In this document: in pieces, positions 51,051 through 63,783 of the stretch
Layout of the letters: each line of letters starts with the position of its first letter
Position numbering within the stretch: position 1 is the first letter of the stretch
Source: an uncultured Gammaproteobacteria bacterium
GTDB taxonomy: Bacteria; Patescibacteriota; Microgenomatia; UBA8517
Assembly (NCBI GenBank): GCA_964587425.1
Contig: CAZPLB010000004.1
Span: 3,197-67,196 of the forward strand
Reading direction: 5' to 3'
Length of the DNA: 64,000 bases
Made by a program: the position numbers and the translations under genes
Notes under the pieces: model-generated
Told to the model about the DNA's origin: nothing
The model's input: only the letters and a program-made list of their open reading frames with translations
Databases searched by the model: none

Positions 51051-51442
51051 TTATGACAATATCCAAAAAATTCTAGGTTATGTTTCAATATTTTGAATTT
51101 ATTGACACTCGAAATAAATTTCTCCTCATTTAAAAGAGCTTCTTTTAAAACCACATCTTCAACCTCATGGCAATTGACACAAACCAAGTGATGATGATGC
51201 CCCAAACTTGAAAGTTCATATCTTTTATTTCTGTCACCGAAATTAACTTCATTAAGATACCCTGCATTTAAAAGAGTATCTATTTCTCGATATATAGTTG
51301 TTTTGTTTGCTTTTATTTTTGAAAGAAATTCAGTAGGGGTTAAAGGTTTGGTAGAGGACTGCAACATTCCAATAATTTGTTTTCGAACTGAAGTTATCTT
51401 TAACCCAGATTTTTTTAGATCATCAACTATTTTATCTTGCAT
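51041..51442 (-). CDS. zur: Fur-family zinc uptake regulator
   Basis: An N-terminal wHTH (...SVRKQIIGML...) and C-terminal HHHLVCVNC...CHNC metal sites are present. The start was set at the internal ATG (MQDKIVDDLKKSG...). The ORF-track TTG start at 51478 is an alternative. Confidence 0.8.
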   Translation of the reverse strand: MQDKIVDDLKKSGLKITSVRKQIIGMLQSSTKPLTPTEFLSKIKANKTTIYREIDTLLNAGYLNEVNFGDRNKRYELSSLGHHHHLVCVNCHEVEDVVLKEALLNEEKFISSVNKFKILKHNLEFFGYCHNCQ

Positions 51443-51494
51443 GACGCTATCATAACGCAACTTAGTTGCAGTTGTCAATACGACGATCTAATAA
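51443..51494 (-). promoter_or_regulatory. zur-znu promoter with an embedded 6-1-6 palindrome GCAACT-t-AGTTGC (candidate Zur box)
   Basis: On the minus strand the sequence reads TTGACA-actGCAACTaAGTTGCg-TTATGAT-agcgtc-ATG. The palindrome sits in the -35/-10 spacer, and the ATG is ~7 nt after the -10, implying a leaderless transcript. Confidence 0.45.
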
Positions 51495-52646
51495 TCAATC
51501 ATTCTTAGCATCAACTATGAAGCTTGCTCTATTAAATAATTCATCGAATGTTAAGATATCGATTCCATGTAATGATTTTCGAAATCTTTGAAAAGTTTCT
51601 CTTTTACTTCTGGTATCGAGTTGAGATAACTGGCCAATTACCACAACTCCTTTAGGCTGTATTGTAAATACATTATCTTTTTCTAATTTATCAATGTTCT
51701 CTGGAAATCTTGATCCTTGTTTATCCCAAGTATCAACATTAACTTGTATTTGAGTTAGGGCATCCGTTAGTTGTTTTGAAAGACTCCACGCCCCTGATCT
51801 AATCTCCTTTTCACCTTGGAGTAGTTGAGTATCTGGAGTTTTTATTTCGACTAAAACTGTAAAACTTAAATCTCCAACAGTGGATGTTAGATAATCTCCT
51901 TTTTGTCCTCCTCTTCCGTCAACTTTTGTGCCTCCATAATTTGGTTGATTTTGTTCTTGTCGCAAAATTTGATAATTTAGTCCGTAACCAAATATCCATT
52001 TATTTGACTCAAAAAAATCTTGCCACCATTTTTCATCTGTTGACTGTGTTTTAATTGATGTGTCAAACAATGTAAGCTTTTCTTTTCTCTTTAAGATTTG
52101 ATTTATGTCGTCTTCTGATAGTGAAATACCATTTATTAAAGATAGTTGTTTGATAATACTCAGCACACTCTCAATACCACGCCCTCTAATGGCTTTGACT
52201 ATCTCGCTCTCGGCTTGGGTTACCAAAGAAAAACTTTCTCTAGGAATTTCAATTTGTGTTAGGGAGGTTAAAAATGAGATAAGTTTCCAAAAGTTATCGT
52301 GGCATTCTTCTAGGTTGACACTCGCTTTAATCATGCGGTCCTTCGCCTCGGTCATGTTTACCGATTCTTCAATAATTTTCCCGGTCACGTTTCTAACTGA
52401 TACAGAGATTCGAGGCGTAAATTTTTCATCTTTTTTTATTAATACAACCTTACAAATGTAATCAACTTTGTCTTTCTTATTTAAAATAAACTGTTTAATC
52501 AATTTATTATCTTTTTTGCTGAAAAAATAATGGAAATTGTTTTCGGGAGTGGGATGGATTTCTAAATCGTCAAATGAGTCTTTGCCAACTATAAAGCTGT
52601 CATTGTTTACCTGAATCCATTTGTCATAATCAACAGTCTTTAACAT
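51495..52646 (-). CDS. Shedu-like (DUF4263) PD-(D/E)xK nuclease, putative anti-phage defence protein
   Basis: The C-terminal half has EKWWQDFFESNKWIFGYGLNY...GDYLTSTVGDLSFTVLVEIKTPDT...IDILTFDELF. This gives a D-x13-E.K catalytic arrangement and the DUF4263-like entry motif. It is adjacent to a recombinase and phage genes. Confidence 0.45.
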   Translation of the reverse strand: MLKTVDYDKWIQVNNDSFIVGKDSFDDLEIHPTPENNFHYFFSKKDNKLIKQFILNKKDKVDYICKVVLIKKDEKFTPRISVSVRNVTGKIIEESVNMTEAKDRMIKASVNLEECHDNFWKLISFLTSLTQIEIPRESFSLVTQAESEIVKAIRGRGIESVLSIIKQLSLINGISLSEDDINQILKRKEKLTLFDTSIKTQSTDEKWWQDFFESNKWIFGYGLNYQILRQEQNQPNYGGTKVDGRGGQKGDYLTSTVGDLSFTVLVEIKTPDTQLLQGEKEIRSGAWSLSKQLTDALTQIQVNVDTWDKQGSRFPENIDKLEKDNVFTIQPKGVVVIGQLSQLDTRSKRETFQRFRKSLHGIDILTFDELFNRASFIVDAKND

Positions 52647-52703
52647 ATATTTTACTGCTTGTATTATCCTCCAAGCCTAAATCAAAAACAATCTGCTTGA
52701 AGT

Positions 52704-53990
52704 TTAATGAGCTCTGAGAGAAGTAATATTTCGGTTCTTGATAAATAGTGGGAAATTAAAAATGTTAAATAGCTCACGTTTTTCCTCTGTGTTTTTGTTT
52801 GTTAAAACATATCTCGCATAATCTCTTATGTCCCACAGTTTCGAATTTGGATTAACATCTTGCTGAAGAAAGATTGCTTCTCTCATATTCTTAAACTCCT
52901 CGAGTCCTTTTTGAATTTTATCTGTCAGTACTAACTCATGAGAATGAGCTATATACATAAAGTTTATGAGTTTTAGTAAACTTCTTTCTAATTCTTCTTC
53001 CGACACATAAGGTTCTCTGCAATCGTAATCAATTTGGCGGGAACAGTGATAATAAACATGGTATCTCGGCTCTTTTCTTAATCTTTCTCTGTATCTGTCT
53101 TCTCCAACAATGCTTGCCTTGCAATTAGCACATTTCAGAAGTCCTTTATAAGTGAATGTTTTTGATCCCCATTTAGCTTTTGTTGGTACTATTAATTTTT
53201 CTTGAACTTTATCAAACATTTCTTTTGTGATTAACGGAGGATATGAACCCTTATACCAATTGCCACTTTTTATCGGATATTCAAATTCACCATAATAAAA
53301 TGGATTTTTTAGCATTAAATAAACCTGACTCAAGGTAATTAGTTGCCCAGATTTATTTGTAAGGCTCACTTCATCTAGCCATTTTTTAATCTTTCTTCCG
53401 CTAGATTTTTCCTTAATAAATTTTGTGAACATTTGCGTAATAATAGGTCCTCTTTCCGAATCAAGAATCACGTCTTTTATCCCATTAAAAGATCTATTCA
53501 TATATCCAATTGGAGTAGGACCAGGTCTAAATCCCATTTCGCATTTTGCTCTAATTCCTCGTTTTACATTTATACCTTTTTGGTCATTTTCTAGTTTTGC
53601 TTGGGAGCAGAGAATCATAAGTAAAAACTTCTCGTTGGGGTTATTGGAAAACATTTGTGAAAATGTCCTTATTTGCAAGAGTTTCCCCTGATCCATCAGA
53701 TCCACTAAATTCCCCAAATCTCCAGCGTTACGTGATAACCTGTCAGGTGCCCAAGTTAAGATCCCATTAAACCTTTTTTCTCTAATATCACTAAGGAGTT
53801 TCATAAACATTGGCCTCTGTCCTGAATCTTTTGCAGAATGGCTCTCCTGAAGTACCTCAACAACATTTAAGCCCTCTTTTGTTGCGAGAGCTCCCATTTC
53901 CTTTATCTGACTATCAATGCTCATGGTTTGGCGTTCATCGCTCTCTGAAGATTTCCTAGCATATAAACAGTAATTAATTTGAGGCTCCAT
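52704..53990 (-). CDS. large serine recombinase (resolvase catalytic domain + recombinase domain + zinc ribbon)
   Basis: The catalytic-serine region YCLYARKSSESDERQTMSIDSQ, a recombinase domain and a C4 ribbon (CANCKAS...YHCSRQ) are present. The start was set at the internal ATG (MEPQINYCLY...). The ORF track extends it to 54077. Confidence 0.8.
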   Translation of the reverse strand: MEPQINYCLYARKSSESDERQTMSIDSQIKEMGALATKEGLNVVEVLQESHSAKDSGQRPMFMKLLSDIREKRFNGILTWAPDRLSRNAGDLGNLVDLMDQGKLLQIRTFSQMFSNNPNEKFLLMILCSQAKLENDQKGINVKRGIRAKCEMGFRPGPTPIGYMNRSFNGIKDVILDSERGPIITQMFTKFIKEKSSGRKIKKWLDEVSLTNKSGQLITLSQVYLMLKNPFYYGEFEYPIKSGNWYKGSYPPLITKEMFDKVQEKLIVPTKAKWGSKTFTYKGLLKCANCKASIVGEDRYRERLRKEPRYHVYYHCSRQIDYDCREPYVSEEELERSLLKLINFMYIAHSHELVLTDKIQKGLEEFKNMREAIFLQQDVNPNSKLWDIRDYARYVLTNKNTEEKRELFNIFNFPLFIKNRNITSLRAH

Positions 53991-54033
53991 ACAGGTACAA
54001 GGTACCGCAACGGTTTGTGAAGTCCAGACGTAA

Positions 54034-54064
54034 AAACAGGAAGGTGTTTTATTCCTTCCTGTTT
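54034..54064 (-). terminator. hairpin terminator AAACAGGAAGG-n9-CCTTCCTGTTT downstream of the 54080..54508 gene
   Basis: An 11-bp perfect stem with a T-rich flank on the minus-strand transcript. It lies between the OB-fold gene and the recombinase. Confidence 0.55.
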
Positions 54065-54079
54065 CTAACTTTAGCAACT

Positions 54080-54508
54080 TTATTTAACAATCTCACAGTC
54101 GCTGACGTCAATTACTCCGATTGTTTGTTTACCTACAATTCCTTGTACAGTAACTGTTTGACCGTTCTTTATCGTCAATAGCTGTTGTTTGTCTTTAATC
54201 CTACAGCTTATCTGCACTAAGGAAAAATCCTTTGATCCAATATTGGCAAAGGAAATACCTGAGTCGGTAATATTTGTAACCTTTGCAGAAAACTCAACAA
54301 GTTTACCTTTCCATGTTGCCTCAGCCGCCACTTGATTGGCGTCAAAATCATCTGCTAGTTTATCCACGCTTATTTTTTCAGCTACAGGAGCCGGAGTAGG
54401 TGAGGATGATGAAGAAGTCTTGCTTCCTCCCTTACCGCTTCCACCAACTATTCCAATTACTATTAGCCCTAAAATGATAAACCCAACAATTTTTAAAAAT
54501 TTTTTCAA
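54080..54508 (-). CDS. membrane-anchored small protein with a Gly/Ser-rich linker and an OB-fold-like C-terminal domain
   Basis: An N-terminal TM helix, GGSGKGGSKTSSSSSPTPAP linker, then a ~90-aa beta-rich domain. This is a common phage/island accessory architecture. Confidence 0.4.
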   Translation of the reverse strand: MKKFLKIVGFIILGLIVIGIVGGSGKGGSKTSSSSSPTPAPVAEKISVDKLADDFDANQVAAEATWKGKLVEFSAKVTNITDSGISFANIGSKDFSLVQISCRIKDKQQLLTIKNGQTVTVQGIVGKQTIGVIDVSDCEIVK

Positions 54509-54608
54509 TTTACTTCACCCCCTTTCCCTTCATTAACTGAATGATGCGCGAAATATGGCATAAAGTCAAGCGTATTCTGAGGCTATTTGCTCGCTTCTAG
54601 CTAGTAGA

Positions 54609-54629
54609 TTGATAACTCTTGGCTATCAA
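54609..54629 (+). promoter_or_regulatory. inverted repeat TTGATA-N9-TATCAA overlapping the XRE gene promoter (candidate operator)
   Basis: The palindrome lies immediately upstream of the ATG of the HTH gene. TAATAT -10-like hexamer 4 nt before the ATG. Confidence 0.45.
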
Positions 54630-54639
54630 TAATATCAGT

Positions 54640-54855
54640 ATGATAAGAAGCACTAAACAAACCAAAGAGAGGCTGGGAAGCAAAATTCAGAAACTTAGAA
54701 AATCTTTTGACTTATCGCAAGAAGCGTTGGCATCAAAATTGGGTATCAGTAGAACTCATATGGGTCATATTGAGCAAGGAAGAAAATCGCCTTCTCTTAA
54801 ACTTCTTACCAAAATTTCAAAAGAACTTAAAAAGGACATTTCGGATCTCTTCTAA
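54640..54855 (+). CDS. XRE-family (Cro/CI-type) HTH transcriptional regulator
   Basis: LRKSFDLSQEALASKLGISRTHMGHIEQGRKSPSLKLL is a classic HTH_3 sequence. The start was set at ATG 54640. The ORF track uses TTG 54619. Confidence 0.7.
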   Translation: MIRSTKQTKERLGSKIQKLRKSFDLSQEALASKLGISRTHMGHIEQGRKSPSLKLLTKISKELKKDISDLF

Positions 54856-56375
54856 AACTTTGTATCCATTGTTATTGGTCCATGGTTGAATTCACGATCA
54901 TTGTATAAACCACCCGTTACAGGTGATCCACCAAAGATAAACATTTCAAACTCCGGTCTGCTGTCTTCCTCGATAATTTTTAAGAGCAGTAATGAAAAAG
55001 CATCTGCCAAATCATCATGCCTTTCGATGCCAAATCCAGTTAGTTGATTAATAAGTGTTTCTGCACCGTGCCTTGGGAACCAAACCTTACCCTGTTTAAT
55101 TATGTGGGTAACAATTGCAAGTCTTGTTCTTTTGTCTTGGCCTTTTGGACTCACACCTTCGACAGGGATATATTTAGAAGAAAGATGATCAATAAATGAT
55201 TGTTGGTAACCGACATTTTCAACAAATAACTTTGTCTGTTCGCCATGAACCACAGTTTTTGATAACGAAATTGCTGTCTCAACAGTTGTTGGAAAATCCA
55301 TCCTTTTATTTATTGGGTTAGGTAAAATATACACCGCCAAATCTTCACCTCGACCAAACATATATGCAGTGACCATTGCAGTACAGTCTGCTGATTCTCT
55401 TAAGGAAATTGCCAAATCAATTCCAATTCCAGCAAATTCGAAATTATCCGAATCTGGAGACGGAAGGTCGTCGTAATATTGTATCCATTCAGATTTAACT
55501 AATCTATCTTCATCAGAAATAATTTTAAGTAAATATTCTCTATAAAAGGCTGACTCTTGGGAGAAATTCTTTTTCAATTTTTCAACATCTTCAATTGTTG
55601 GGTATTTGGCAGGCCATAAAATATCATTTTTATCGTCAATCAGAGGGTAAGCCAAAAACTTACCATTCAACTTTTGGTCTTCTATCAATTTTCTAAACCT
55701 CATAATTAAACTGTCTTCGTGAAGTAAATTGCCGACAACCAAAATTTTTGTATTTTTATCTCCGACTGGAATAATTTCGGCATTAAACCAAGTGAAAGTT
55801 TTATCTCTACCTTCCTTTGTCTTAACACTATTAATGTCTTCTATGTCATCGCAAATAATTAAATCCGGCCTATACTGCCCATGTCTAACTCCGCGTATGC
55901 TTTGTTCGGTTGAAACGGCTGCAATTCGGGTACCAAATTTTGGAATAACTATTGAATTCGACCCCCATTCATCATTTGGCGATTCGAATGGGCCAATATC
56001 AGCTTTGAGTAAATCATTATTTTCAAGCTCCTGTTTAATATTTTCCAAATGCAATTTGGCTTGAGCTTGAGTTTGACAAACAATAAGAATAAATTTTTTC
56101 TGCTGGATTCCTATTATTGACCAGATCACATATGAAAGTGTTACCAATGTTGATTTTGCTGATCCACGAAAAGCGACAAGGACTGCAAACGCTATATCCT
56201 CTTCAGTAAGTTCAAATATTTCATGATGAAAAGGAGCAAACTCGCAGGAAATATAATGCGAAAGATAAAGTGTAAAAAACCAATAATGATTTTTTCTAGC
56301 CAAAGCCCGTCTTATTTTTCTATCCTTTCTGATTTTTTCTAATTCTTCTGGGCCTAGTTGGGGATAATAAATCAT
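54852..56375 (-). CDS. phage terminase large subunit-like protein (ATPase + RNaseH-like nuclease)
   Basis: Walker A (FRGSAKST) and Walker B (LIICDD) are present, with a C-terminal nuclease-like region. It is adjacent to a small-terminase-like HTH gene. Confidence 0.65.
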   Translation of the reverse strand: MIYYPQLGPEELEKIRKDRKIRRALARKNHYWFFTLYLSHYISCEFAPFHHEIFELTEEDIAFAVLVAFRGSAKSTLVTLSYVIWSIIGIQQKKFILIVCQTQAQAKLHLENIKQELENNDLLKADIGPFESPNDEWGSNSIVIPKFGTRIAAVSTEQSIRGVRHGQYRPDLIICDDIEDINSVKTKEGRDKTFTWFNAEIIPVGDKNTKILVVGNLLHEDSLIMRFRKLIEDQKLNGKFLAYPLIDDKNDILWPAKYPTIEDVEKLKKNFSQESAFYREYLLKIISDEDRLVKSEWIQYYDDLPSPDSDNFEFAGIGIDLAISLRESADCTAMVTAYMFGRGEDLAVYILPNPINKRMDFPTTVETAISLSKTVVHGEQTKLFVENVGYQQSFIDHLSSKYIPVEGVSPKGQDKRTRLAIVTHIIKQGKVWFPRHGAETLINQLTGFGIERHDDLADAFSLLLLKIIEEDSRPEFEMFIFGGSPVTGGLYNDREFNHGPITMDTKF

Positions 56376-56803
56376 TTTTGTTCCTCCATTTCTTCTTTTT
56401 GCATTGCTGGTATCAGTGAAGCTAATTGCAGAGCTTTTGTCACCAATGCTTCTTGTTCCGGAGTTAAGGTTTCATTTTGATTTTTCAGATTGGCTGTAAC
56501 CTCAACTTTAGTAGCATATGCAGAATGATGATGTTTTAACCAAAAAATAATTGCAGTCATATTTTGATCTTTGATTGCAGAAAGGAGCTGGCTCTCTGCC
56601 ATGTCATTAACCAAAGCTGCACCTTCATTCAGGGCAATATCCGTTTCCTTAGAAAACTTTTCATCATTTATTCTCCACCTGTAATATGTAGCTCTTGCGA
56701 TTCCAATTTTTCTGCAAACAACCTCCACAACTGGTGTCTCTTTTAATTTATCCAACAATTCTTTCTTTAATGCAGTTTGCCTTTTAGTAATTAAGTTTTT
56801 CAT
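56372..56803 (-). CDS. phage terminase small subunit-like HTH protein
   Basis: ...VVCRKIGIARATYYRWRINDEKF is a terminase-small/transposase-type HTH. The start was set at the ATG (MKNLITK...) overlapping the stop of the upstream methyltransferase gene. Confidence 0.5.
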   Translation of the reverse strand: MKNLITKRQTALKKELLDKLKETPVVEVVCRKIGIARATYYRWRINDEKFSKETDIALNEGAALVNDMAESQLLSAIKDQNMTAIIFWLKHHHSAYATKVEVTANLKNQNETLTPEQEALVTKALQLASLIPAMQKEEMEEQK

Positions 56804-58125
56804 TGTATTTTTATAGCTTTTTGCCCCGTCAAGTTCTCCCATCTCTTCTTGATAACTTCCGCGTAAACTGGTGACTTTTCCATTAAGTAGCATCGCCTTT
56901 TCATTTTCGTTGCAGCAATTAAAGTGGATCCACTTCCTCCGAAAGGTTCAATTATTAAATCATTTCTCTTAGTCAAAACTTTTATATAGGGGATAAGTAT
57001 TTCTATTGGTTTGGTTCCAAAAATTATTCCCTGACCTGAAGACTTTTCATCAGAAGCCTTATATTCAATAAAATCAGTCGGGCAATACTTATTACCTTTC
57101 TTATAACTTTCCCAAGTCGGTTTACCAGAAGTTGCAAAAAGTGCGGTTTCATATTCTTCTTGGAGAAGTGGTTCGTTCTCGTGATTAACATTTAGAGTTA
57201 CTTCACCTGATGTCCCAACCATTGCAAAATCATATTTATTAAAAAACTTATATTTTGCCGCAAAGCCCTGCATCCTGTTTGGTAAGTGCCAAATAACTGT
57301 GTTTCTGTATTTCCAATGCTTCTCCAGTTCGTTCCAAATAGTTCTTAGATTTTTGGGATTTTCATAAACGATAATTGAAAAATCTGGTTTTTGAATCTTG
57401 GAAACACTGGCCATCCATTTTTCTGTGAAATCTGGTGGTAAAACATCTGTTTCTAAATATCTGCGGTCTCTCTTTGCTCCAAAACCTGTGATAGCTCCTT
57501 TATGTTTCTTCTTTCCTCGAAGGTAATCTAAAATGTAAGGCGGGTCTGTAAAACACATGTCCGCTTTTTCTCCACTCATGAGTTTTAACACATCTTCTTC
57601 AATCGTTGAATCTCCACACATTAATCGACTATTTCCTAATAGATAGATGTCTCCTTTTTGAGTTTCAACGTTTGTGATGTTCATCCTCTGAAGTTCCTTT
57701 TGAAGATCAAAAGTTTCTGGGTTTACATCAATATCAAAAATATTATCTATCTCTTCAGAAGAAAAGCCTGCGCTTGAAAGGAAAATCTCATCCAAATCTG
57801 CCAATAAATCCATATCCCAATCTCCTACGTTTTTGTTCGATCGAATATTGTATTCCGCAAATTCATCTTTTGTAAGTTTCCTGTTTGGAATTCTTATGTC
57901 TATTTCTTCTTCGCCTCTGCCTAAGAGAATCATTACCTTCACCCTCTGATGCCCGGCCACAATCTTATTGTCAGTATCGATAGCTGGGATTTCGGCTAAA
58001 TTAAATTTAATCAAGCTGTCCTTTAACTTGTTAGCCTGGTCCTCTGACAATTTGCGTGGATTTAATTCATACGGAATCAAATCTTTTACCTTACGTTTTT
58101 CTGTATGCCAAGATAAATTAGTCAT
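56800..58125 (-). CDS. ParB-like nuclease domain fused to a beta-class N6-adenine/N4-cytosine DNA methyltransferase (orphan, phage-type)
   Basis: The N-terminus has a ParB/Srx fold (YELNPRKLSEDQANKLKDSLIKFNLAEIPAIDTDNKIVAGHQRV). Motif IV (DPPY, in CFTDPPYILDY) precedes motif I (FGGSGSTLIAA), the beta-class order. Confidence 0.75.
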   Translation of the reverse strand: MTNLSWHTEKRKVKDLIPYELNPRKLSEDQANKLKDSLIKFNLAEIPAIDTDNKIVAGHQRVKVMILLGRGEEEIDIRIPNRKLTKDEFAEYNIRSNKNVGDWDMDLLADLDEIFLSSAGFSSEEIDNIFDIDVNPETFDLQKELQRMNITNVETQKGDIYLLGNSRLMCGDSTIEEDVLKLMSGEKADMCFTDPPYILDYLRGKKKHKGAITGFGAKRDRRYLETDVLPPDFTEKWMASVSKIQKPDFSIIVYENPKNLRTIWNELEKHWKYRNTVIWHLPNRMQGFAAKYKFFNKYDFAMVGTSGEVTLNVNHENEPLLQEEYETALFATSGKPTWESYKKGNKYCPTDFIEYKASDEKSSGQGIIFGTKPIEILIPYIKVLTKRNDLIIEPFGGSGSTLIAATKMKRRCYLMEKSPVYAEVIKKRWENLTGQKAIKIQ

Positions 58126-58175
58126 AAGGGGATTGTCTACTATTGCTCAAGATTTGTATAAGGCGCCAATTCAGC

Positions 58176-58925
58176 TCAATTGATGCCAATTTTTTGTTTA
58201 TGACGTTTTATGAAGCTAGCAACGTCAACGTATGTATAATTTTTGTCATATTTTTCAGATAAGATGTCAGATATTTCATCATTCGATTTGTTTGAAACAC
58301 TGAGCTCATATGCTTCTTTATCTCTATCAAAGTTTTTTATTGGTTGAAATTTCTTTTTGGTATAAGACGCAAGTCTTTTTTGGTGAAACTTGATTCTTGA
58401 CCATGCCTTCTTTATATCTTCAAGTCTAGTAGAATCATCTATCCCAATAGAAAGTTGTACTAGATCTGTGTCTAAGTCAAAATCCTCTCGAACTGTTACG
58501 TTTCCCACTATCCACATCGAGTCAAGATTGTTAAATAAAATATACCTTTGAATACTATGATGCCAACCTAAAGGCAACCTATGTTTTTCCAAGATTTTCT
58601 TTATACAGATATCCAATGCATTTATGGGAGCATCCTTGTTAAACTGACGTCGAAGATTGAAAGCTTCTTTAAACTTCTTTCCTTTTTCCAGCTCCAATTC
58701 TTCGATCTTTATCCTTGATATATTTTTTTCAAAATATTCGTCGTTGCTTAAATAAAAATTATGATGCCATTTTTCGCTTTGATCGTTATCTTTAATCCCT
58801 TCTTGAGGAATACTAAATCTTTCCCTGATTTCTGCCACATTTTTTTGAAAATCAGGGTTGGCAAGAGTCAGCCTTGCTCTTTGTTTTATCCTATTTGTTG
58901 GTTTCTTAACTTGTTTAGTTTTCAT
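58176..58925 (-). CDS. hypothetical protein
   Basis: A 249-aa Lys-rich ORF with no recognised motif. It is divergent from the downstream operon. Confidence 0.4.
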   Translation of the reverse strand: MKTKQVKKPTNRIKQRARLTLANPDFQKNVAEIRERFSIPQEGIKDNDQSEKWHHNFYLSNDEYFEKNISRIKIEELELEKGKKFKEAFNLRRQFNKDAPINALDICIKKILEKHRLPLGWHHSIQRYILFNNLDSMWIVGNVTVREDFDLDTDLVQLSIGIDDSTRLEDIKKAWSRIKFHQKRLASYTKKKFQPIKNFDRDKEAYELSVSNKSNDEISDILSEKYDKNYTYVDVASFIKRHKQKIGIN

Positions 58926-58990
58926 TTTCTTAAACTGATTATACCTACTTTCTTGTTATAGGCGAGCCTGAGTTATATACTTCTGATGAA

Positions 58991-60199
58991 ATGAAATACA
59001 GAGTCTATGCCTTAATTCATGGTCAAACCCTTATGGAAGGGAAATTATTTGAGTGTGAAATTAAGAAGATGGAATTTGATGAACAAGCAAAAAGAAAGTT
59101 TGCCCCAATTCAAAGCGTTTTCTCCGAAGGAGAAGATTATGATTATTACAAAACTTATGTCACCTCTCTTCGATATATTGACCCTATAAAAATAAGGTCT
59201 GAACATGTAATTATTTGTGATATCGAGGAAGACAAACCTGGAGATGCACTAGGTGGAGCAATCAAAACAATCGAAAGAATAACCAGATTTTTGTCTTTAA
59301 CTTCTTTGGAAGATGTAAAGAGAAAATATGGAAGGAATAGAGGTAGTTTTGAACCATACGTTTATCAGGTAAATAAAATTTATTCTCTAAATAAAAATGG
59401 TAAAGAATCAGATGTTGGCTATAAGCTTGAAAGTGGACATATATATTTGCCAAATAGACCAGAACAGGAAAAATGGAGGGATCCCGGCACAAGTCAATTT
59501 TTAGATGAAATTTACAATTTCCACGACGAAACATTTGAGAGATCTCTCAAATATCTCTATCGATCTTCTATAGGACGTTTTGTTTTAGATAGTCAGGAGA
59601 AGATAGCATTGGATCATTTCAAATCAATTGAAATTATAATCAACTCATTATCAAAAGAACATGAGTTTAAGGATAGGTTGGCGGATGTCGCAGTAAAGAT
59701 AGGAATTACACCAAGAGAGCAAAAGAGAATTGAAGATTTTTGGGATGATAGGTCGAAGTATGGTGACATTGCTCATCCATCAAAATTTGACCAGGTTGAA
59801 AGATATCCAAACCAGTTTCCAGTACCCAGCAATACTAGATATTCCGGGAGTGGTTTTGATTCAATTGCTCCAAATATTCTCTTTAAATATTATCAGTACA
59901 TTAAAGGAGTTTTTATAATCGACATTGACGAACCATCTGGTGCGAATGGGTCAAACTCTAAAGAGGGTCGATTTGATAAAGTTTATGAAATCTCACAATA
60001 TGGCCCAAGTCACCACAACCATTTAGTTTTCTACACTTCAGAGAAAAACAAGCACAAATTAGTTAATAATTTAAAGAAGGCATTTTCCAAAAAATACAAA
60101 ATATCAGAGACTTCAATAACGGAAATAAAAATTCTCCCAAAGAAGAGTGGAAACTATAGCGAAAGGAGGGTTAGATTAAGAGTATGTACGACAATATAA
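58991..60199 (+). CDS. hypothetical protein (gene A of an uncharacterised operon)
   Basis: A 402-aa ORF of non-biased composition with no Walker motifs. It contains an RSKYGDIAH segment (R-x7-H, outside canonical HEPN spacing). Its stop overlaps the gene B start by 16 bp. Confidence 0.45.
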   Translation: MKYRVYALIHGQTLMEGKLFECEIKKMEFDEQAKRKFAPIQSVFSEGEDYDYYKTYVTSLRYIDPIKIRSEHVIICDIEEDKPGDALGGAIKTIERITRFLSLTSLEDVKRKYGRNRGSFEPYVYQVNKIYSLNKNGKESDVGYKLESGHIYLPNRPEQEKWRDPGTSQFLDEIYNFHDETFERSLKYLYRSSIGRFVLDSQEKIALDHFKSIEIIINSLSKEHEFKDRLADVAVKIGITPREQKRIEDFWDDRSKYGDIAHPSKFDQVERYPNQFPVPSNTRYSGSGFDSIAPNILFKYYQYIKGVFIIDIDEPSGANGSNSKEGRFDKVYEISQYGPSHHNHLVFYTSEKNKHKLVNNLKKAFSKKYKISETSITEIKILPKKSGNYSERRVRLRVCTTI

Positions 60200-61737
60200 A
60201 AATTGCTTTTGAAAGTTTAATTAAACATCCTCACTTCCAAATTCTAGTAAGAGAATATCGCCACAGGTTCGGTATTCCGGAATCTGGTTTTAGTGATTCA
60301 TCTTCTGAGGCATATAAAAATTGGGTAAATGAAGGTTTAAGAAAGTCAGATTATTTAAAAGATCAATTTCTATTTATAGCCAAAAGGTGTAAAAACCTTA
60401 TTCCAAACAGAGATCCAATCCCTAGCACCTTACTTGCATATTATTTTCTATTCGGACAAATTCCAAACGAATCATCTAGCCAAAATAGTTTTATCTTTTC
60501 TGTTAATCCAAGCGGAATTCTTGGCAGTTTCGATATAACTTTTACGACTCCATTAGTTTTCAGTTTGGATGAATTTTTGCAGGAGGTTGAAAAACATAAT
60601 CTGGAAATTAAACAAACAAGTGAAAACACAAGATTAGCTCTTTTTAATCTATCTAGTTCAAAAAAACCAAGGACATCGGAGTTTGACTCAACTCGCGACT
60701 TATTAGCAACAACCCCTGGCAATGGTTCAGATATTGTAGATCGAGTTCATAGAGATATGGCCTATTTAGTTGAGTTTGGTCGAATTGCATTAGAAGAACA
60801 TCTCCAAAATATGAAAGATGAAGATTTTGTTATTAATAGTTACGATGACAAAAATAAGCCCATGTTTCAACCAATACAACATATGGGATCCATTCTTTTG
60901 AATCGCGGACTATTTCCTATCGCTGAGGAATACTGGAAACAAATAGATGATGAGATTCAGATGTTTAATCGGCAAACTGGAAAAAGAGTTAATAGAGGCA
61001 TTCCATTAGCAAATACGGGTGTATCCCAAATTGCACAAGGGAAAGTTATAGAAGGTCTATTTAATATTTATAGAGGATATAACGACGATAAAGAATGTCT
61101 TCAGCATTTACCCGGAATTGTAATTGATCCTGAAAGGGACATGTCGAGAAGCGTTCTCTTTACTCAATTTGAAGAGAAACAAACTGCTGAACTTTTTAAT
61201 TTGATTGTTTCCAAATACAGCAATGTTTTTAATCCAGCACTGTCAAAAGAAGACCTTGCAGACTTTATTAAAAGTTTGGGTTCAGATAAAAAATTGCTTT
61301 TCTACATGATCCTTTATCGTTTATCTTTTGCTCTGAATTTAAACAATCAATTATCAACCGTCATTTCTAGAAGCGAGATTCTTAGGTCATTGGCGGAACT
61401 AGCTTTATGGTTTGAAGATGAGTTAAAAAGAAAAGATCCGGTTTTGATTGGTCGAACTTTGGTTCCGATATTGGATCAAAAAGTTGGTCAGTTAAATCCA
61501 ACCAGTGATCAATACACGAGGGCAGCAGACTTGGATGAGCTATCTAATAAAATATCCAGCGCACTACAAGCAACTGCTAATTTGGAAATTACAAACGCAC
61601 GAATTATTGGATGTTTAAGAAATTTTGCTGGCCACAATCTCGAAGTCCAAGACCACACATTTTTCCAAACTTGCGATGAAATTTTTGCACGGATGCTTTC
61701 TTTTATAATTTATTCAAGAGGTCAAAATTGGATTTAA
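60184..61737 (+). CDS. HEPN-motif protein (gene B), putative RNase
   Basis: The C-terminus of this 517-aa protein has ITNARIIGCLRNFAGHNLEV, i.e. RNFAGH, a canonical HEPN Rx4-6H (Abi2-like RNxxxH) motif. It overlaps genes A and C. Confidence 0.45.
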   Translation: MYDNIKIAFESLIKHPHFQILVREYRHRFGIPESGFSDSSSEAYKNWVNEGLRKSDYLKDQFLFIAKRCKNLIPNRDPIPSTLLAYYFLFGQIPNESSSQNSFIFSVNPSGILGSFDITFTTPLVFSLDEFLQEVEKHNLEIKQTSENTRLALFNLSSSKKPRTSEFDSTRDLLATTPGNGSDIVDRVHRDMAYLVEFGRIALEEHLQNMKDEDFVINSYDDKNKPMFQPIQHMGSILLNRGLFPIAEEYWKQIDDEIQMFNRQTGKRVNRGIPLANTGVSQIAQGKVIEGLFNIYRGYNDDKECLQHLPGIVIDPERDMSRSVLFTQFEEKQTAELFNLIVSKYSNVFNPALSKEDLADFIKSLGSDKKLLFYMILYRLSFALNLNNQLSTVISRSEILRSLAELALWFEDELKRKDPVLIGRTLVPILDQKVGQLNPTSDQYTRAADLDELSNKISSALQATANLEITNARIIGCLRNFAGHNLEVQDHTFFQTCDEIFARMLSFIIYSRGQNWI

Positions 61738-62393
61738 AACTTATGGACAAACTATTTTGTAATATTTGCAAAGAAGAAAAAGGTGTCACTAAATCCGGTA
61801 AAGAAGGGGTTGCTGATTTCTATATTCTTTCTTGTGGTCATCGGTTTCTAGCAGGATCCCTTTTTGAAAAAATTAAAATGAATGAACTGTTTAATTTTAG
61901 AGGAAAGGGCAAGACAAATATTAAATACACTAAGGGTGATCCTCAGCACAGTGCAAACTATGCTAAGAAATTCATTGAGTACGGAGATATTGATTATGAA
62001 GCTGCGACTGTTCTATTTAATATCCAAAACAGGGACTACGATTTCATGAACCAAGCAGCTTTTTTGTCGGCACAATCAATTGAAAAATATCTTAAAGCAT
62101 TTCTTTTTTGGAATTCAAAAACGCATTATCCAGGTTCAGGTGGTAAAGAAGTTTTAGAAAAATTCAAAGCGCTGAGCCATAACTTAGAAAATATTCTTGG
62201 CGAATGTGCAAAAGACAACAAAGATTTCTTAAAGTTTAAGAGTCAAATTAAGGAAGTTAACAAATATTCTCTACTTAAATATCCCGACGTTGAGGATGAA
62301 ATGGTTTATTCTGATTTGGGATTAACGATTAGTAGCGATATTTTGAAACATGTAAAATTGGTGGGAGACTTTATAAAAAAGTTATTACTGTAA
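61728..62393 (+). CDS. zinc-ribbon protein (gene C)
   Basis: The N-terminus has CNICKEE...x17...SCGHRF. A helical C-terminal domain follows with ...AAFLSAQSIEKYLKAF...KALSHNLENIL. Confidence 0.4.
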   Translation: MDLKLMDKLFCNICKEEKGVTKSGKEGVADFYILSCGHRFLAGSLFEKIKMNELFNFRGKGKTNIKYTKGDPQHSANYAKKFIEYGDIDYEAATVLFNIQNRDYDFMNQAAFLSAQSIEKYLKAFLFWNSKTHYPGSGGKEVLEKFKALSHNLENILGECAKDNKDFLKFKSQIKEVNKYSLLKYPDVEDEMVYSDLGLTISSDILKHVKLVGDFIKKLLL

Positions 62394-62395
62394 AA

Positions 62396-62980
62396 ATGTT
62401 GTCTGATAAATTAATCAAAGAATATAAAGATATTTTTGAAGTAAAATACAAACGAAAAATATCTGACGAGGAAGCGCGAGAAGGCGCGCAAAATTTAACT
62501 AATTTATTTGAGATCTTCTACCAGCAATTCCAAACAGAACAGCGAAGAAAAGCAAAATTAAAAGATAACCCAGATGGTTTTCTTTTAGATGACCACGAAG
62601 GCGCTTATAACTGCCGGGTTTGCAACTATCCTGTTTCTGGAAAAGAAGCTTGGTGGGATTTAAACGGTGTTAAGTGCCTAGATTGTCAGAGAAATATCAA
62701 AGAGGGAGTTATTCCCGGAGAGATTTGTCAAAACGATGACCTTTGTATAAAAGAATGGCAATTACAATCTGATTACAGTCTTCACCCCTCTACAAGAAGA
62801 AAACTTATAAGAGAAGGTGTCCTTAAAGCACGAGATTTAAAGAGAGAGGATGGGTCAACCTACTATTCTGTTTATCTTGTGAGTGAAAACAAAGAGTTTT
62901 TCAAGAAATATCCTCAAAAACCAAAAATGAAGTTTGAATGGAAAACTGTTGATAGTAAAGGTAATGAAGTAAGGCCATAA
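62396..62980 (+). CDS. zinc-ribbon protein (gene D)
   Basis: A central CRVCNYP...x16...CLDCQRN motif sits in a 194-aa ORF. Confidence 0.4.
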   Translation: MLSDKLIKEYKDIFEVKYKRKISDEEAREGAQNLTNLFEIFYQQFQTEQRRKAKLKDNPDGFLLDDHEGAYNCRVCNYPVSGKEAWWDLNGVKCLDCQRNIKEGVIPGEICQNDDLCIKEWQLQSDYSLHPSTRRKLIREGVLKARDLKREDGSTYYSVYLVSENKEFFKKYPQKPKMKFEWKTVDSKGNEVRP

Positions 62981-63099
62981 GTATATCAAACTACATCATT
63001 ACTCCAATATCCTTTTTATACTGTCTCAAATGTCTCATTTAGCCTCGATTGTGATACACTCTTAGGTGAGTTATAAGGTCTAAACGGGTTCAGACCGGT

Positions 63100-63783
63100 A
63101 TGCTCAGCATGGATAATCTTCAACAGAAACAATGGACTATTCCGAAAGCTAAGAAAAATCTTCATGCTTGTAGATATCATTTGGTAAATATGTGGCGTTC
63201 TGTACACCCAGAAGAACTTCAGTACAATTTCGCAGCATTTTTGAGTGAAGCGTTGAGGGTAACTTGGGTATTACAAAATGAATATTGTAGAGATAAGAAA
63301 TTTATAAAGTGGTGGGGTAATATTGAAAAAGATAGTCGTACTGGAGGTAATAAGTCTAAACTTGAAAAAGGAACAAAAAGATACGAGATGAGGAATGACC
63401 AGCTGTGTAGTTTTTTTTACGATCTGAGAACTAAAATTTTGAAAGAAGGAGTATCGGGATTTGCAGTTCAATCAACAAAGATTCTGAAATTAGATACAAG
63501 GTTTGACATTAAGGATAAGCCAGAAGGTGCAAGTAGTTTTATATTTTCTGGAAATGGTGCTTACTGGTTGATTTACCCTAGTTCTTCTAAAGTAGATATG
63601 ATTCCAGCAAAATTCCAAACTACTGCCAATATTCAATATTCAATTACAAGTACTGATCTTCCAAATTCGCACCTTAATAAGTTAATTAAAAACAATAATT
63701 TACTGAAGAGTTGTGAACTTTATTGTCAGTATTTGAGTAGTTTACTTGAAGAGTGGACAGAGATATTAAATAAACATGATTGA
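63100..63783 (+). CDS. hypothetical protein (gene E)
   Basis: A 227-aa ORF. Its stop overlaps the next ATG (ATGATTGA). Confidence 0.4.
   Translation: MLSMDNLQQKQWTIPKAKKNLHACRYHLVNMWRSVHPEELQYNFAAFLSEALRVTWVLQNEYCRDKKFIKWWGNIEKDSRTGGNKSKLEKGTKRYEMRNDQLCSFFYDLRTKILKEGVSGFAVQSTKILKLDTRFDIKDKPEGASSFIFSGNGAYWLIYPSSSKVDMIPAKFQTTANIQYSITSTDLPNSHLNKLIKNNNLLKSCELYCQYLSSLLEEWTEILNKHD

Follow-up and report, generated by a model that had tools for sequence, protein, structure and literature searches.

Introduction

Shedu (SduA) nucleases are well described as a single-gene defence against phages, and structures are available for two of them, from B. cereus B4264 (8TI8, 8TI9; Gu et al., 10.1101/2023.08.10.552793) and E. 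coli (8PS4, 8PS5; Loeff et al., 10.1101/2023.08.10.552762). The proteins classified as Type I by Loeff et al. and Type 1 by Gu et al. have a mean length of 386 aa. Four nuclease motifs (I–IV) were defined in B. cereus Shedu, and the N-terminal domain of Type 1A proteins, to which it belongs, adopts a beta-beta-beta-beta-alpha sPC4/Whirly fold and is modelled as a dimer. The activating cues differ: E. coli SduA responds to DNA ends, whereas single-stranded nucleic acid has been proposed as the cue of B. cereus Shedu. A third system, KELShedu, needs a 12.6-kDa DNA-binding partner that is encoded 3 bp upstream (PMC12577705). With respect to genomic context, Loeff et al. described Shedu in the P2 Z/fun hotspot (10.1101/2023.08.10.552762), and Gu et al. 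recorded 121 prophage-borne Shedu genes (10.1101/2023.08.10.552793).

Here, we analyse an sduA gene in the window, the whole stretch of 64,000 nucleotides of DNA that was examined, from what the relatives of its GltX indicate to be a Woesebacteria-like CPR bacterium. The gene very probably encodes a type I Shedu immune nuclease that is the terminal cargo of an integrated phage-derived element and probably protects both host and element. The annotation is correct but ordinary, and adds little in itself, as Pfam and PADLOC call the protein and its homologues are already labelled DUF4263 or Shedu. Its value is modest and lies in documenting an intact type I Shedu in this group, in an N-terminal domain family that appears restricted to Shedu proteins, and in its genomic setting; no paper on Shedu in Woesebacteria-like CPR bacteria was found in the literature searched, and the published phylum survey of Shedu omits them. 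The gene occupies a swappable end slot of a small integrase/terminase element with relatives in several uncultivated lineages, which offers a handle on the movement of defence genes among ultra-small symbiotic bacteria.

The sduA gene and its family

The positions of all features are collected in Table 1. The open reading frame at 51495–52646 and the motif strings quoted in the original prediction are present in the minus-strand translation (EKWWQDFFESNKWIFGYGLNY at residues 205–225, GDYL at 250–253, VLVEIK at 264–269 and IDILTFDELF at 362–371), and the frame contains neither frameshifts nor internal stops. The spacing of 13 residues given there between GDYL and VLVEIK applies to the distance from GDYL to E267; only 10 residues separate GDYL from VLVEIK itself. 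The exact protein is already recorded in NCBI and Logan.

Membership of the Shedu family was assessed with profile searches. The Pfam family PF14082 (SduA_C) matched residues 203–370 over profile positions 2–158 of 159, with E=1e-30 and 107.4 bits, about four times the gathering score (cut-off 27). In PADLOC, 18 SduA models matched, the best being PDLC00391 (E=6.6e-134), which aligned residues 10–379 to model positions 13–400 of 402. Sequence matches in the PDB were to Shedu only (1e-19 with the single sequence, 1.5e-43 with the family profile). Judged by these scores, the match to the Shedu family is far beyond chance, and the product is a genuine, intact member of it. With 383 aa, about 200 of which precede the C-terminal DUF4263 domain, it falls into type I. 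Sub-threshold matches to Pfam STL11_N (E=0.0039), NCBIfam SA1320 (14 bits versus 230) and phrog_38147, a family without assigned function, were dismissed.

At least 120 cluster representatives align with the protein end-to-end, with 60–83% identity over at least 95% of its length. Such close homologues are common in MAGs of CPR/Patescibacteria, where NCBI names them 'DUF4263 domain-containing protein' or 'Shedu immune nuclease family protein'. A tblastn search of INPHARED phages and a scan of IMG/VR contigs revealed no member of this subfamily, and no experimental study of any PDLC00391-subfamily member was found in the literature searched.

The system consists of a single gene. Neighbour clustering of 41 full-length loci gave no universal partner, each neighbouring gene being limited to 12 loci or fewer; those that recur are serine recombinase and type I R-M genes, and the homologues are surrounded by type I R-M, SIR2, GmrSD, PLD-nuclease and SLFN genes. 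In three loci with 64%-identical homologues (L004, L005, L015), a small HTH gene lies 3 bp upstream of the nuclease gene. A two-gene system of sduA and a PDDEXK_1 gene, found 3' of sduA in L006 and L007, was considered and rejected for the window, because that gene is absent from it and the pair occurs in only two non-redundant loci.

Table 1. Features of the sduA locus; positions refer to the window.
Feature	Position	Strand	Basis or remark
Native zur promoter	51449..51478	-	Promoter scan 11/12; host sequence flanking the insert, outside Shedu
Left junction of inserted DNA	51485..51494		Bounded by the stop codon of sduA and the native zur promoter
sduA CDS, type I single-gene Shedu nuclease	51495..52646	-	ATG-initiated ORF, 383 aa + stop
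DUF4263/SduA_C PD-(D/E)xK nuclease domain	51537..52040	-	Residues 203–370, Pfam
Motif IV, Q299	51750..51752	-	Aligns with B. cereus Q295
Motif III, E267-I268-K269	51840..51848	-	Aligns with B. cereus E264/K266; codons read directly
Motif II, D251 in GDYL, flexible loop	51894..51896	-	Aligns with B. cereus D249
Motif I, E205	52032..52034	-	Aligns with B. cereus E204
Helical linker	52047..52241	-	About residues 136–200; helices 144–154, 158–170, 178–200
N-terminal beta-rich putative sensor domain	52242..52646	-	About residues 1–135, AlphaFold
Large serine recombinase (integrase)	52704..53990	-	57 nt upstream of sduA, same strand; phrog_95 integrase, 7.7e-58
Sie-like OB lipoprotein	54080–54508	-	Pfam, PADLOC, PHROGs
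HTH_3 regulator	54619–54855	+	Pfam, PADLOC, PHROGs
TerL	54852–56375	-	PHROGs 1.5e-78
TerS-like HTH protein	56372–56893	-	Pfam, PADLOC, PHROGs
ParB-N6/N4 methyltransferase	56800–58125	-	Pfam, PADLOC, PHROGs
249-aa protein without assigned function (u249)	58176–58925	-	Element backbone (54080..58925)
Second variable slot	58991..62980	+	402-aa, 517-aa and HEPN 221-aa proteins, then conserved 194-aa gene (u194)
Conserved 30-nt motif GCTAAATGAGACATTTGAGACAGTATAAAA	63014..63043	-	Far end of inserted block; once in the window

Domains, motifs and predicted structure

Within the nuclease domain, the residues of motifs I–IV (E205, D251, E267, K269 and Q299) are each invariant in 64 of 64 relatives, and the same five are at least 95% conserved in a set of 62 sequences reaching down to 22% identity. 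These observations bear on the idea that the protein has lost cleavage, either as an inactive relic or as a Shedu derivative with a regulatory or DNA-binding function. Apart from its residence in a possibly degraded, prophage-like element without structural genes, nothing specific speaks for this; intact, invariant catalytic residues, a full-length frame free of lesions and end-to-end alignment with the relatives make it very improbable, and we treat the protein as an intact nuclease.

Structures were predicted with AlphaFold as monomers only, the overall pLDDT being moderate (62.8) for the first model and better, if imperfect, for the second (75.6). The loop around D251 has low pLDDT, which is expected because the motif II loop has been described as mobile (10.1101/2023.08.10.552793). 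A Foldseek search against the PDB yielded nine significant matches, all of them Shedu (8TI8, 8TI9, 8PS4, 8PS5); the best had E=8e-11, and the nuclease core superimposed on 8TI9 with a TM of 0.77 and an rmsd of 4.1 Å. Viral folds gave nothing significant in a BFVD search.

In principle, a PD-(D/E)xK core could belong to a non-Shedu enzyme (of the NucS/EndoMS, Cas4/RecB-like or restriction endonuclease type) with a role in housekeeping or restriction. EndoMS is indeed the nearest non-Shedu structural relative of the Shedu core, and the next non-Shedu Foldseek match was the restriction enzyme BstEII, at a weak, non-significant E=0.029. However, no NucS, Cas4 or restriction family HMM of Pfam, NCBIfam or PADLOC matched the protein, no NucS or Cas4 structure was among the significant Foldseek matches, and neither an adjacent CRISPR-cas locus nor a cognate methyltransferase paired with sduA was found across the homologues. 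The Pfam, PADLOC and Foldseek results effectively refute this reading, which we regard as extremely unlikely. The original prediction had named NucS or Cas4 as the outcome that would speak against Shedu, and had proposed comparison with PF14082 and with published SduA structures; the former was significant, the latter gave the B. cereus and E. coli proteins as best matches, and the DUF4263/SduA assignment thus holds.

The N-terminal domain is predicted to comprise seven strands (residues 17–86), a disordered loop (90–107) and a helix (113–128), with pLDDT values of about 86–93 across residues 20–80 in the second model. It has neither a sequence nor a fold match in the PDB. Because the full-length model PDLC00391 matches, the whole N-terminal region belongs to a recognised SduA subfamily. 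A search of 1.84 billion representatives placed the domain in an uncharacterised family of 129 clusters (at 50% identity), and SduA_C was carried by all 10 full-length members examined; as far as tested, the family appears to occur only as a fusion with Shedu nucleases. Within it, residue F53 is invariant and R79 almost so. The statement that the N-terminal ~200 aa are unrelated needs qualification: it is borne out for about residues 1–150, which do not resemble the solved N-terminal domains, but residues 152–200 share homology with the linker of the B. cereus protein.

The inserted element and its left junction

The gene preceding sduA on its strand encodes a large serine recombinase of 429–457 aa (Pfam domains Resolvase, Recombinase and Zn_ribbon_recom), whose start at 53990 was inferred from the orthologue in a sister element, L093. 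The PHROGs matches (integrase 8e-58, TerL 1.5e-78) point to a phage origin of the backbone genes, and no capsid, portal or tail genes were recognisable in the ~11.5-kb element. The HEPN assignment in the second variable slot rests on a Pfam match with E=2.6e-06. Comparison of the loci places sduA as the terminal cargo gene of this inserted phage-derived block of ~11.5 kb, which was inserted upstream of the zur promoter, about 10 nt from its −35 box.

Downstream, sduA directly precedes zur-znuA-znuC-znuB on the same strand, confirming the adjacency to a zinc-uptake operon that had been noted before. The zur promoter has a −35 hexamer TTGACA (51478–51473) and a −10 hexamer TATGAT (51454–51449), contains the palindrome GCAACT-A-AGTTGC (51469–51457), and is conserved in two related zur operons (L089 and L090). 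The zur start is most likely ATG 51442..51440; the gap between sduA and zur amounts to 52 nt (51443–51494), because the TTG taken as the zur start by the ORF finder is that of the −35 hexamer. No intrinsic terminator was predicted between the two genes, and read-through from sduA into zur-znu is possible. No functional link between sduA and the zinc operon was found, and their adjacency looks like a chance outcome of where the insertion occurred.

In both related zur operons sduA is absent upstream of zur, and their homology to the window stops at about 51484, some 10 nt from the sduA stop codon. In L090 a different, divergent gene lies upstream of zur; as the window contains no homologue of this exonuclease-like gene, it is of no use as a marker of the right border of the island. 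In L089 the far-end motif GCTAAATGAGACATTTGAGACAGTATAAAA directly abuts the zur promoter and has the same orientation. The motif occurs a single time in the window, against a chance expectation of 0, and is also found in L093, L006 and L007; Rfam returned nothing credible for it. L089 may represent the 'empty site', a reading that stays tentative because its contig starts at the motif. Two positions compete for the right border of the element: comparison with L089 places it at about 63010, whereas homology to L093 extends to 63108.

The ambiguity at the far end, together with the shortness of the L089 contig, which hides the DNA upstream of the motif, leaves some room for a different arrangement, in which sduA is a resident host gene that abuts the island and the element was inserted between it and the upstream host gene. 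The gap of only 57 nt between recombinase and sduA would agree with this, as att sites of serine integrases often adjoin the integrase gene. Yet two related zur operons do without sduA, with homology ending ~10 nt from its stop codon; L089 joins to the zur promoter a motif that in the window lies 11.5 kb away; and related elements in L006, L011 and L025 carry SduA beside recombinases at other sites. The GC content of sduA (0.334) is also closer to that of the island (0.351) than to that of the upstream 47 kb (0.388), which is weak evidence for cargo status because the zur-znu genes are at 0.35 as well. We consider a resident sduA quite unlikely. Comparison with the related zur operons and with L093 instead backs the earlier designation of sduA as the leftmost gene of the island, and supports its being cargo of the element.

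Sister element and related loci

The backbone genes of L093 are 81–97% identical in protein sequence to those of the window, except for u249 (35%). A 205-aa gene fills the sduA slot there; in the second slot one ORF of 1,176 aa replaces three genes, whereas u194 is 96% identical. In L006, L011 and L025 the SduA gene adjoins the recombinase at other genomic sites, and across the homologous loci a related serine recombinase lies within 4 kb of sduA in ~30% of cases, in all orientations.

This association raises the question of whom the nuclease serves. It might mainly benefit the mobile element, through inter-element competition, superinfection exclusion or as a stabilising module, with host defence as a by-product. 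The location of sduA near an integrase and a Sie-like superinfection-exclusion lipoprotein, and the frequency of nearby recombinases, fit such a role, and according to published work Shedu is found in prophages and transposable elements and may have roles of this kind. On the other hand, ~70% of the homologues have no recombinase nearby and reside in ordinary defence islands or R-M loci, and L093 persists without sduA. We therefore hold a mainly element-serving nuclease to be unlikely; it would overlap with protection of host and element together, to which we adhere, rather than exclude it, and the biochemical mechanism would be identical.

A broader reading is offered tentatively and is on balance doubtful. 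Compact, phage-satellite-like integrative elements that bear a terminase but no capsid or tail genes might constitute an undescribed family, with a gene set of TerS-like protein, TerL, ParB-methyltransferase, HTH regulator, Sie-like lipoprotein and large serine integrase. They would move among CPR bacteria, and possibly also among DPANN archaea, and would swap defence cargo (Shedu, type I R-M, retron-like reverse transcriptase, HEPN) at no fewer than two hotspots. A conserved palindromic motif of ~35 nt (TGAGACA-TATAAAA-TGTCTCA) would serve them as a recombination site or operator, with Shedu's N-terminal domain as a CPR-adapted sensor.

Proposed mechanism

From analogy with the characterised proteins, we infer oligomeric state, autoinhibition, activating cue, substrate and anti-phage activity as follows. 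[quoted passage not shown] Upon infection the N-terminal domains may sense an invader-specific nucleic-acid cue, which cannot be transferred from the E. coli or B. cereus proteins because the N-terminal domain has no detectable similarity to theirs. The D251 loop would then join E205, E267, K269 and Q299 to make the active site complete, and metal-dependent nicking or cutting of the invading DNA would follow. At the zur locus this would probably protect host and element against competing phages.

Comparison with known systems

The PDLC00391 subfamily and the CPR DUF4263 proteins do not differ from the window's SduA in anything substantive. Among the characterised systems, B. cereus Shedu is of similar size (382 versus 383 aa), and likewise has a three-part layout and a single gene. 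The two proteins are homologous in linker and nuclease (family profile E=1.5e-43, over positions 152–381), with motifs I–IV in register, but identity in the nuclease region is only ~25–28%. The N-terminal domain of the window's SduA (about residues 1–150) has no detectable sequence similarity to that of the B. cereus protein, and the folds cannot be compared because the latter is not resolved in 8TI8/8TI9. The hosts differ as well: a Firmicute versus a CPR bacterium.

E. coli SduA is likewise of type I and has a homologous DUF4263 nuclease (profile E=3.8e-15; Foldseek E=3.5e-9 over ~400 aligned columns), whereas its N-terminal clamp domain is unlike that of the window in sequence. Only the nuclease core is demonstrably common to both, because global superposition is poor (rmsd ~20 Å, TM 0.40), and DNA-end sensing can thus not be assumed here. 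KELShedu (PMC12577705) shares the DUF4263 nuclease and a beta-sheet N-terminal region, but a partner of the KELShedu type is absent from the window, where sduA is flanked upstream, at a distance of 57 nt, by the recombinase and downstream by zur with its own promoter. Finally, compared with the prophage and satellite hotspots, the element is small (~11.5 kb), lacks recognisable genes for capsid, portal or tail, and resides in CPR bacteria; as in those hotspots, however, the defence gene occupies the integrase-proximal end, in a slot that holds another gene in L093.

Identification of the sduA product

The sduA gene was originally predicted to encode a Shedu-like (DUF4263) nuclease directly upstream of the zinc-uptake operon. 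The open reading frame and all strings quoted for it were found in the translated sequence: EKWWQDFFESNKWIFGYGLNY (residues 205-225), GDYL (250-253), VLVEIK (264-269) and IDILTFDELF (362-371). The spacing of 13 residues given for the nuclease motif holds when counted from GDYL to E267, but not from GDYL to VLVEIK, with 10 residues in between. The placement of the gene was also borne out: zur, znuA, znuC and znuB follow on the same strand, and then a membrane protein gene.

Pfam PF14082 (SduA_C), the family proposed as a check, clearly matched residues 203-370 (E=1e-30; 107 bits versus a gathering score of 27). The product also matched 18 SduA models of PADLOC-DB, the best of which (PDLC00391, E=6.6e-134) aligned over residues 10-379 with model positions 13-400 of 402; the match is nearly full length, so the N-terminal half is also part of a catalogued SduA subfamily. 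Searches of NCBIfam and PHROGs yielded nothing of substance. Sequence matches in the PDB were confined to Shedu proteins, namely B. cereus SduA (8TI8; single-sequence E=1e-19, family-profile E=1.5e-43) and E. coli SduA (8PS4; E=3.8e-15, nuclease part only).

B. cereus Shedu has an active site made up of E204, D249, E264/K266 and Q295 (10.1101/2023.08.10.552793). These residues align with E205, D251, E267/K269 and Q299 of SduA, all five of which are invariant among 64 family members. In a set of 62 sequences that extends to identities as low as 22%, each is conserved to 95% or more. Of two AlphaFold models, the one based on close homologues was of middling quality (pLDDT 62.8). The other, for which a more diverse alignment was used, scored 75.6 overall and about 90 in the N-terminal beta domain as well as in most of the nuclease core. 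With both models, the significant Foldseek matches in the PDB were Shedu structures only, and not NucS or Cas4. The better model gave nine, including a chain of the B. cereus nuclease octamer (TM 0.77, rmsd 4.1 Å) and E. coli SduA (E=3.5e-9); the next match was a restriction enzyme (E=0.029). Model confidence was low for the loop bearing D251, which is at least consistent with B. cereus Shedu, where a mobile 'motif II loop' gates activity. Judged from these comparisons, the sduA product is a correctly identified further member of the known Shedu family, and its subfamily is already covered by PADLOC and NCBI naming.

The N-terminal domain

The N-terminal ~200 residues had been called unrelated. 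This applies to residues 1-150, which matched none of the solved structures in sequence or fold, but not to the remainder, as the family profile aligns with 8TI8 from position 152 onwards, spanning linker and nuclease. The model shows seven beta strands in residues 17-86; then come a disordered loop, a helix at 113-128 and, at 144-200, the helical segments of the linker. When 1.84 billion cluster representatives were searched exhaustively with residues 1-195 (HMMER), just 129 clusters were hit. Nearly all of these are proteins 370-430 aa long that match at their N-terminus, or fragments of such proteins. SduA_C was present in all 10 full-length members tested, one of which also has an AbiJ_NTD3 domain; as far as tested, the uncharacterised N-domain is thus confined to Shedu proteins. 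On the beta domain, R79 is nearly invariant and, speculatively, a candidate ligand-contact residue. One protein from this search (P0177, 689 aa) carries AbiJ_NTD3 as a fusion N-terminal to this N-domain and the SduA_C nuclease, which ties an abortive-infection-associated domain to this Shedu subfamily.

sduA as the end gene of an inserted element

Two metagenomic zur-znuACB operons, L089 (ZnuA 75% identical) and L090 (67%), retain the zur promoter and its embedded palindrome (TTGACA-N3-GCAACT-N-AGTTGC, a -10 box and, 6 nt past it, an ATG). Neither has sduA upstream of zur, and their nucleotide homology to the window ends at ~51484, ~10 nt from the sduA stop codon. In L090 an unrelated divergent gene lies upstream of zur. 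In L089, the 34 nt before the promoter match window positions 63014-63043 and a few flanking bases at ~30/34 positions in the same orientation, a motif that is unique in the window (0 expected by chance). L089 thus joins this far motif to the zur promoter, so that the window carries ~11.5 kb extra between the motif and the zur -35 box. Together with the backbone shared with a sister element (L093, GCA_034680565.1), these comparisons place sduA in an inserted block and support the original prediction that it is the leftmost gene of the island. The right border is ambiguous (~63010 by L089, 63108 by L093). That sduA adjoins the zinc operon seems to follow from where the element inserted.

What the ORF finder takes as the zur start, the TTG at 51478, is a strong promoter's -35 hexamer. 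The perfect palindrome in its spacer is a candidate Zur box, and the distance of the zur ATG from the -10 box suggests a leaderless mRNA.

Features of the window and of compared loci
Feature	Location	Strand	Remarks
sduA	51495..52646	-	ATG start, 383 codons
zur promoter	51440-51478, zur ATG included	-	TTGACA-N18-TATGAT
Palindrome in promoter spacer	51457-51469		GCAACT-A-AGTTGC
zur ATG	51442-51440		6 nt past -10 box
Compact element	~51486-63108; L093 3135-13675		~11-12 kb
Large serine integrase	right of sduA		phrog_95, 8e-58
Diverged recombinase C-terminus	52704-52944; L093 13429-13675		~80 residues
Sie-like OB-fold lipoprotein	54080-54508	-	tRNA_anti-like OB fold; Sie-like superinfection exclusion PHROG, 3.7e-14; between TerL and integrase
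HTH_3 regulator	right of sduA
TerL	right of sduA		phrog_38, 1.5e-78
TerS-like HTH protein	right of sduA
ParB-N6/N4 DNA methyltransferase	right of sduA
Second variable slot	58991-62393	+	402-aa, 517-aa and 221-aa HEPN proteins
u194	62396-62980		Conserved element gene, 194 aa, CxxC pairs
End motif	63014-63043	-	~35 nt
End motif copies	L089 1-30; L093 3200-3229; L006 20684-20713, 15775-15804; L007 17031-17060
PDDEXK_1 (Cas4/RecB-like) gene	L006 11166-11921; L007 11166-11921		251 aa; starts 4 bp past SduA stop
HTH_3 gene	L004 7801-7998; L005 96-332		65-78 aa; ends 3 bp before SduA (64% identical, Nomurabacteria)
Reverse transcriptase	L095 4423-5481		352 aa; RVT_1 8.5e-24; between TerL and recombinase

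A recurrent element with variable cargo

The genes to the right of sduA are phage-derived (integrase, Sie-like lipoprotein, HTH_3 regulator, TerL, TerS-like protein and ParB-methyltransferase), with no recognisable portal, capsid or tail genes in the island. This gene set makes up a compact element that recurs in the window, L093, L006, L011 and L095, and it may represent a phage satellite or minimal integrative element of CPR bacteria. The copies in the window and L093 occupy distinct chromosomal sites, and their backbone proteins are 81-97% identical (u194 96%, ParB-methyltransferase 81%, TerS-like 91%, TerL 92%, HTH 96%, Sie-like 97%); their recombinases are 64% identical, with the first ~378 residues well conserved (84% DNA identity in the shared block) and the C-terminal part diverged. 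L093 adjoins tRNA-Gln and dus instead of the zur promoter, which, with this divergence, suggests retargeting through the recombinase C-terminal region.

In L093 a 205-aa gene occupies the sduA slot, and one 1,176-aa ORF replaces the three genes of the second slot. HEPN was the sole match of these three proteins across Pfam, PADLOC and PHROGs; the HEPN protein has a Cys-rich N-terminal stretch, and the genes could form an undescribed defence module. The putative Sie-like lipoprotein would be a second anti-phage function of the same element. More distant relatives were found in other MAGs and one IMG/VR contig. L006 carries type I R-M, SduA and the PD-(D/E)xK gene. L011 (DUGB01000073.1, binned as Candidatus Woesearchaeota archaeon) encodes a 62%-identical SduA and, 37 bp away, a serine recombinase of 45% identity, next to TerS-like and ParB-methyltransferase genes; that such an element lies on a DPANN contig reflects either its cross-domain transfer or a binning error. 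The reverse transcriptase of L095 (IMG/VR contig UViG_3300013232_000622) may be retron-type or DRT-type defence cargo. A u194 homologue (40% identical) lies immediately 3' of SduA in a Parcubacteria contig (L030, 1698-2189).

The end motif, GGCTAAATGAGACA(W)(W)TGAGACAGTATAAAA, recurs nearly identically in five flanking contexts that are unrelated to one another. In L007, L006 and L089 an imperfect palindrome surrounds a TATAAAA box, and the motif is its left part; in the window and L093, element DNA takes the place of the right arm. The L007 copy lies precisely where a defence island borders on housekeeping genes. The motif had no match in Rfam and may be either an att site or an operator.

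Distribution and gene neighbourhood of SduA

A protein search yielded 1,122 homologues; the best 120 were full length, 60-83% identical and mostly from CPR/Patescibacteria MAGs, and those with names were 'DUF4263 domain-containing protein' or 'Shedu immune nuclease family protein'. Among the species-representative genomes scanned, full-length members of the subfamily turned up in Nomura-, Moran-, Falkow-, Kaiser- and Curtissbacteria, Saccharibacteria and Paceibacterota, as well as in Margulisiibacteriota, Acidobacteriota and a contig binned as Woesearchaeota. GltX of the window is at most 72% identical to its closest matches (Candidatus Woesebacteria and 'Patescibacteria group'). SduA is 83% identical to its nearest relative and 60-65% across other CPR classes, which suggests horizontal spread.

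Clustering of all ORFs within 4 kb of SduA in 41 full-length loci revealed no gene that always accompanies it. Recurrent neighbours were a large serine recombinase (12 loci, ~30% after duplicate removal; tandem, convergent or divergent) and type I R-M genes (5 loci), an association reported previously (10.1101/2023.08.10.552793). A PDDEXK_1 gene follows SduA in its two closest relatives, L006 (83% identity) and L007 (77%), and the pair may be a two-gene variant. Some 64%-identical relatives have a small HTH gene upstream (L004, L005), a layout resembling the bicistronic KELShedu (PMC12577705). Neither partner gene is present in the window, and no neighbour is universal, which makes a one-component Shedu the best reading of sduA.

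Comparison with characterised Shedu systems

B. cereus Shedu is an autoinhibited homotetramer, in which the N-terminal domain and the linker domain keep the motif II aspartate off the active site; their removal activates the protein, yielding octamers and double-strand breaks (10.1101/2023.08.10.552793). SduA has its linker, its nuclease and every catalytic motif in common with it, and by this analogy it would most likely be an autoinhibited oligomeric nuclease, released when its N-domain meets an infection-specific cue and then cleaving invading DNA in a metal-dependent manner. The N-domains of both characterised proteins (B. cereus and E. coli) are unlike that of SduA, so the activating cue cannot be inferred from them. 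Shedu genes borne on prophages (121) or associated with transposons (1,110) have been described (10.1101/2023.08.10.552793), and Shedu in the P2 hotspot is already documented (10.1101/2023.08.10.552762). Of more interest than the identity of sduA are the compact integrase/terminase elements of CPR genomes, a family whose defence slots are swappable; the palindromic motif conserved at island ends; and the Shedu-specific N-domain.
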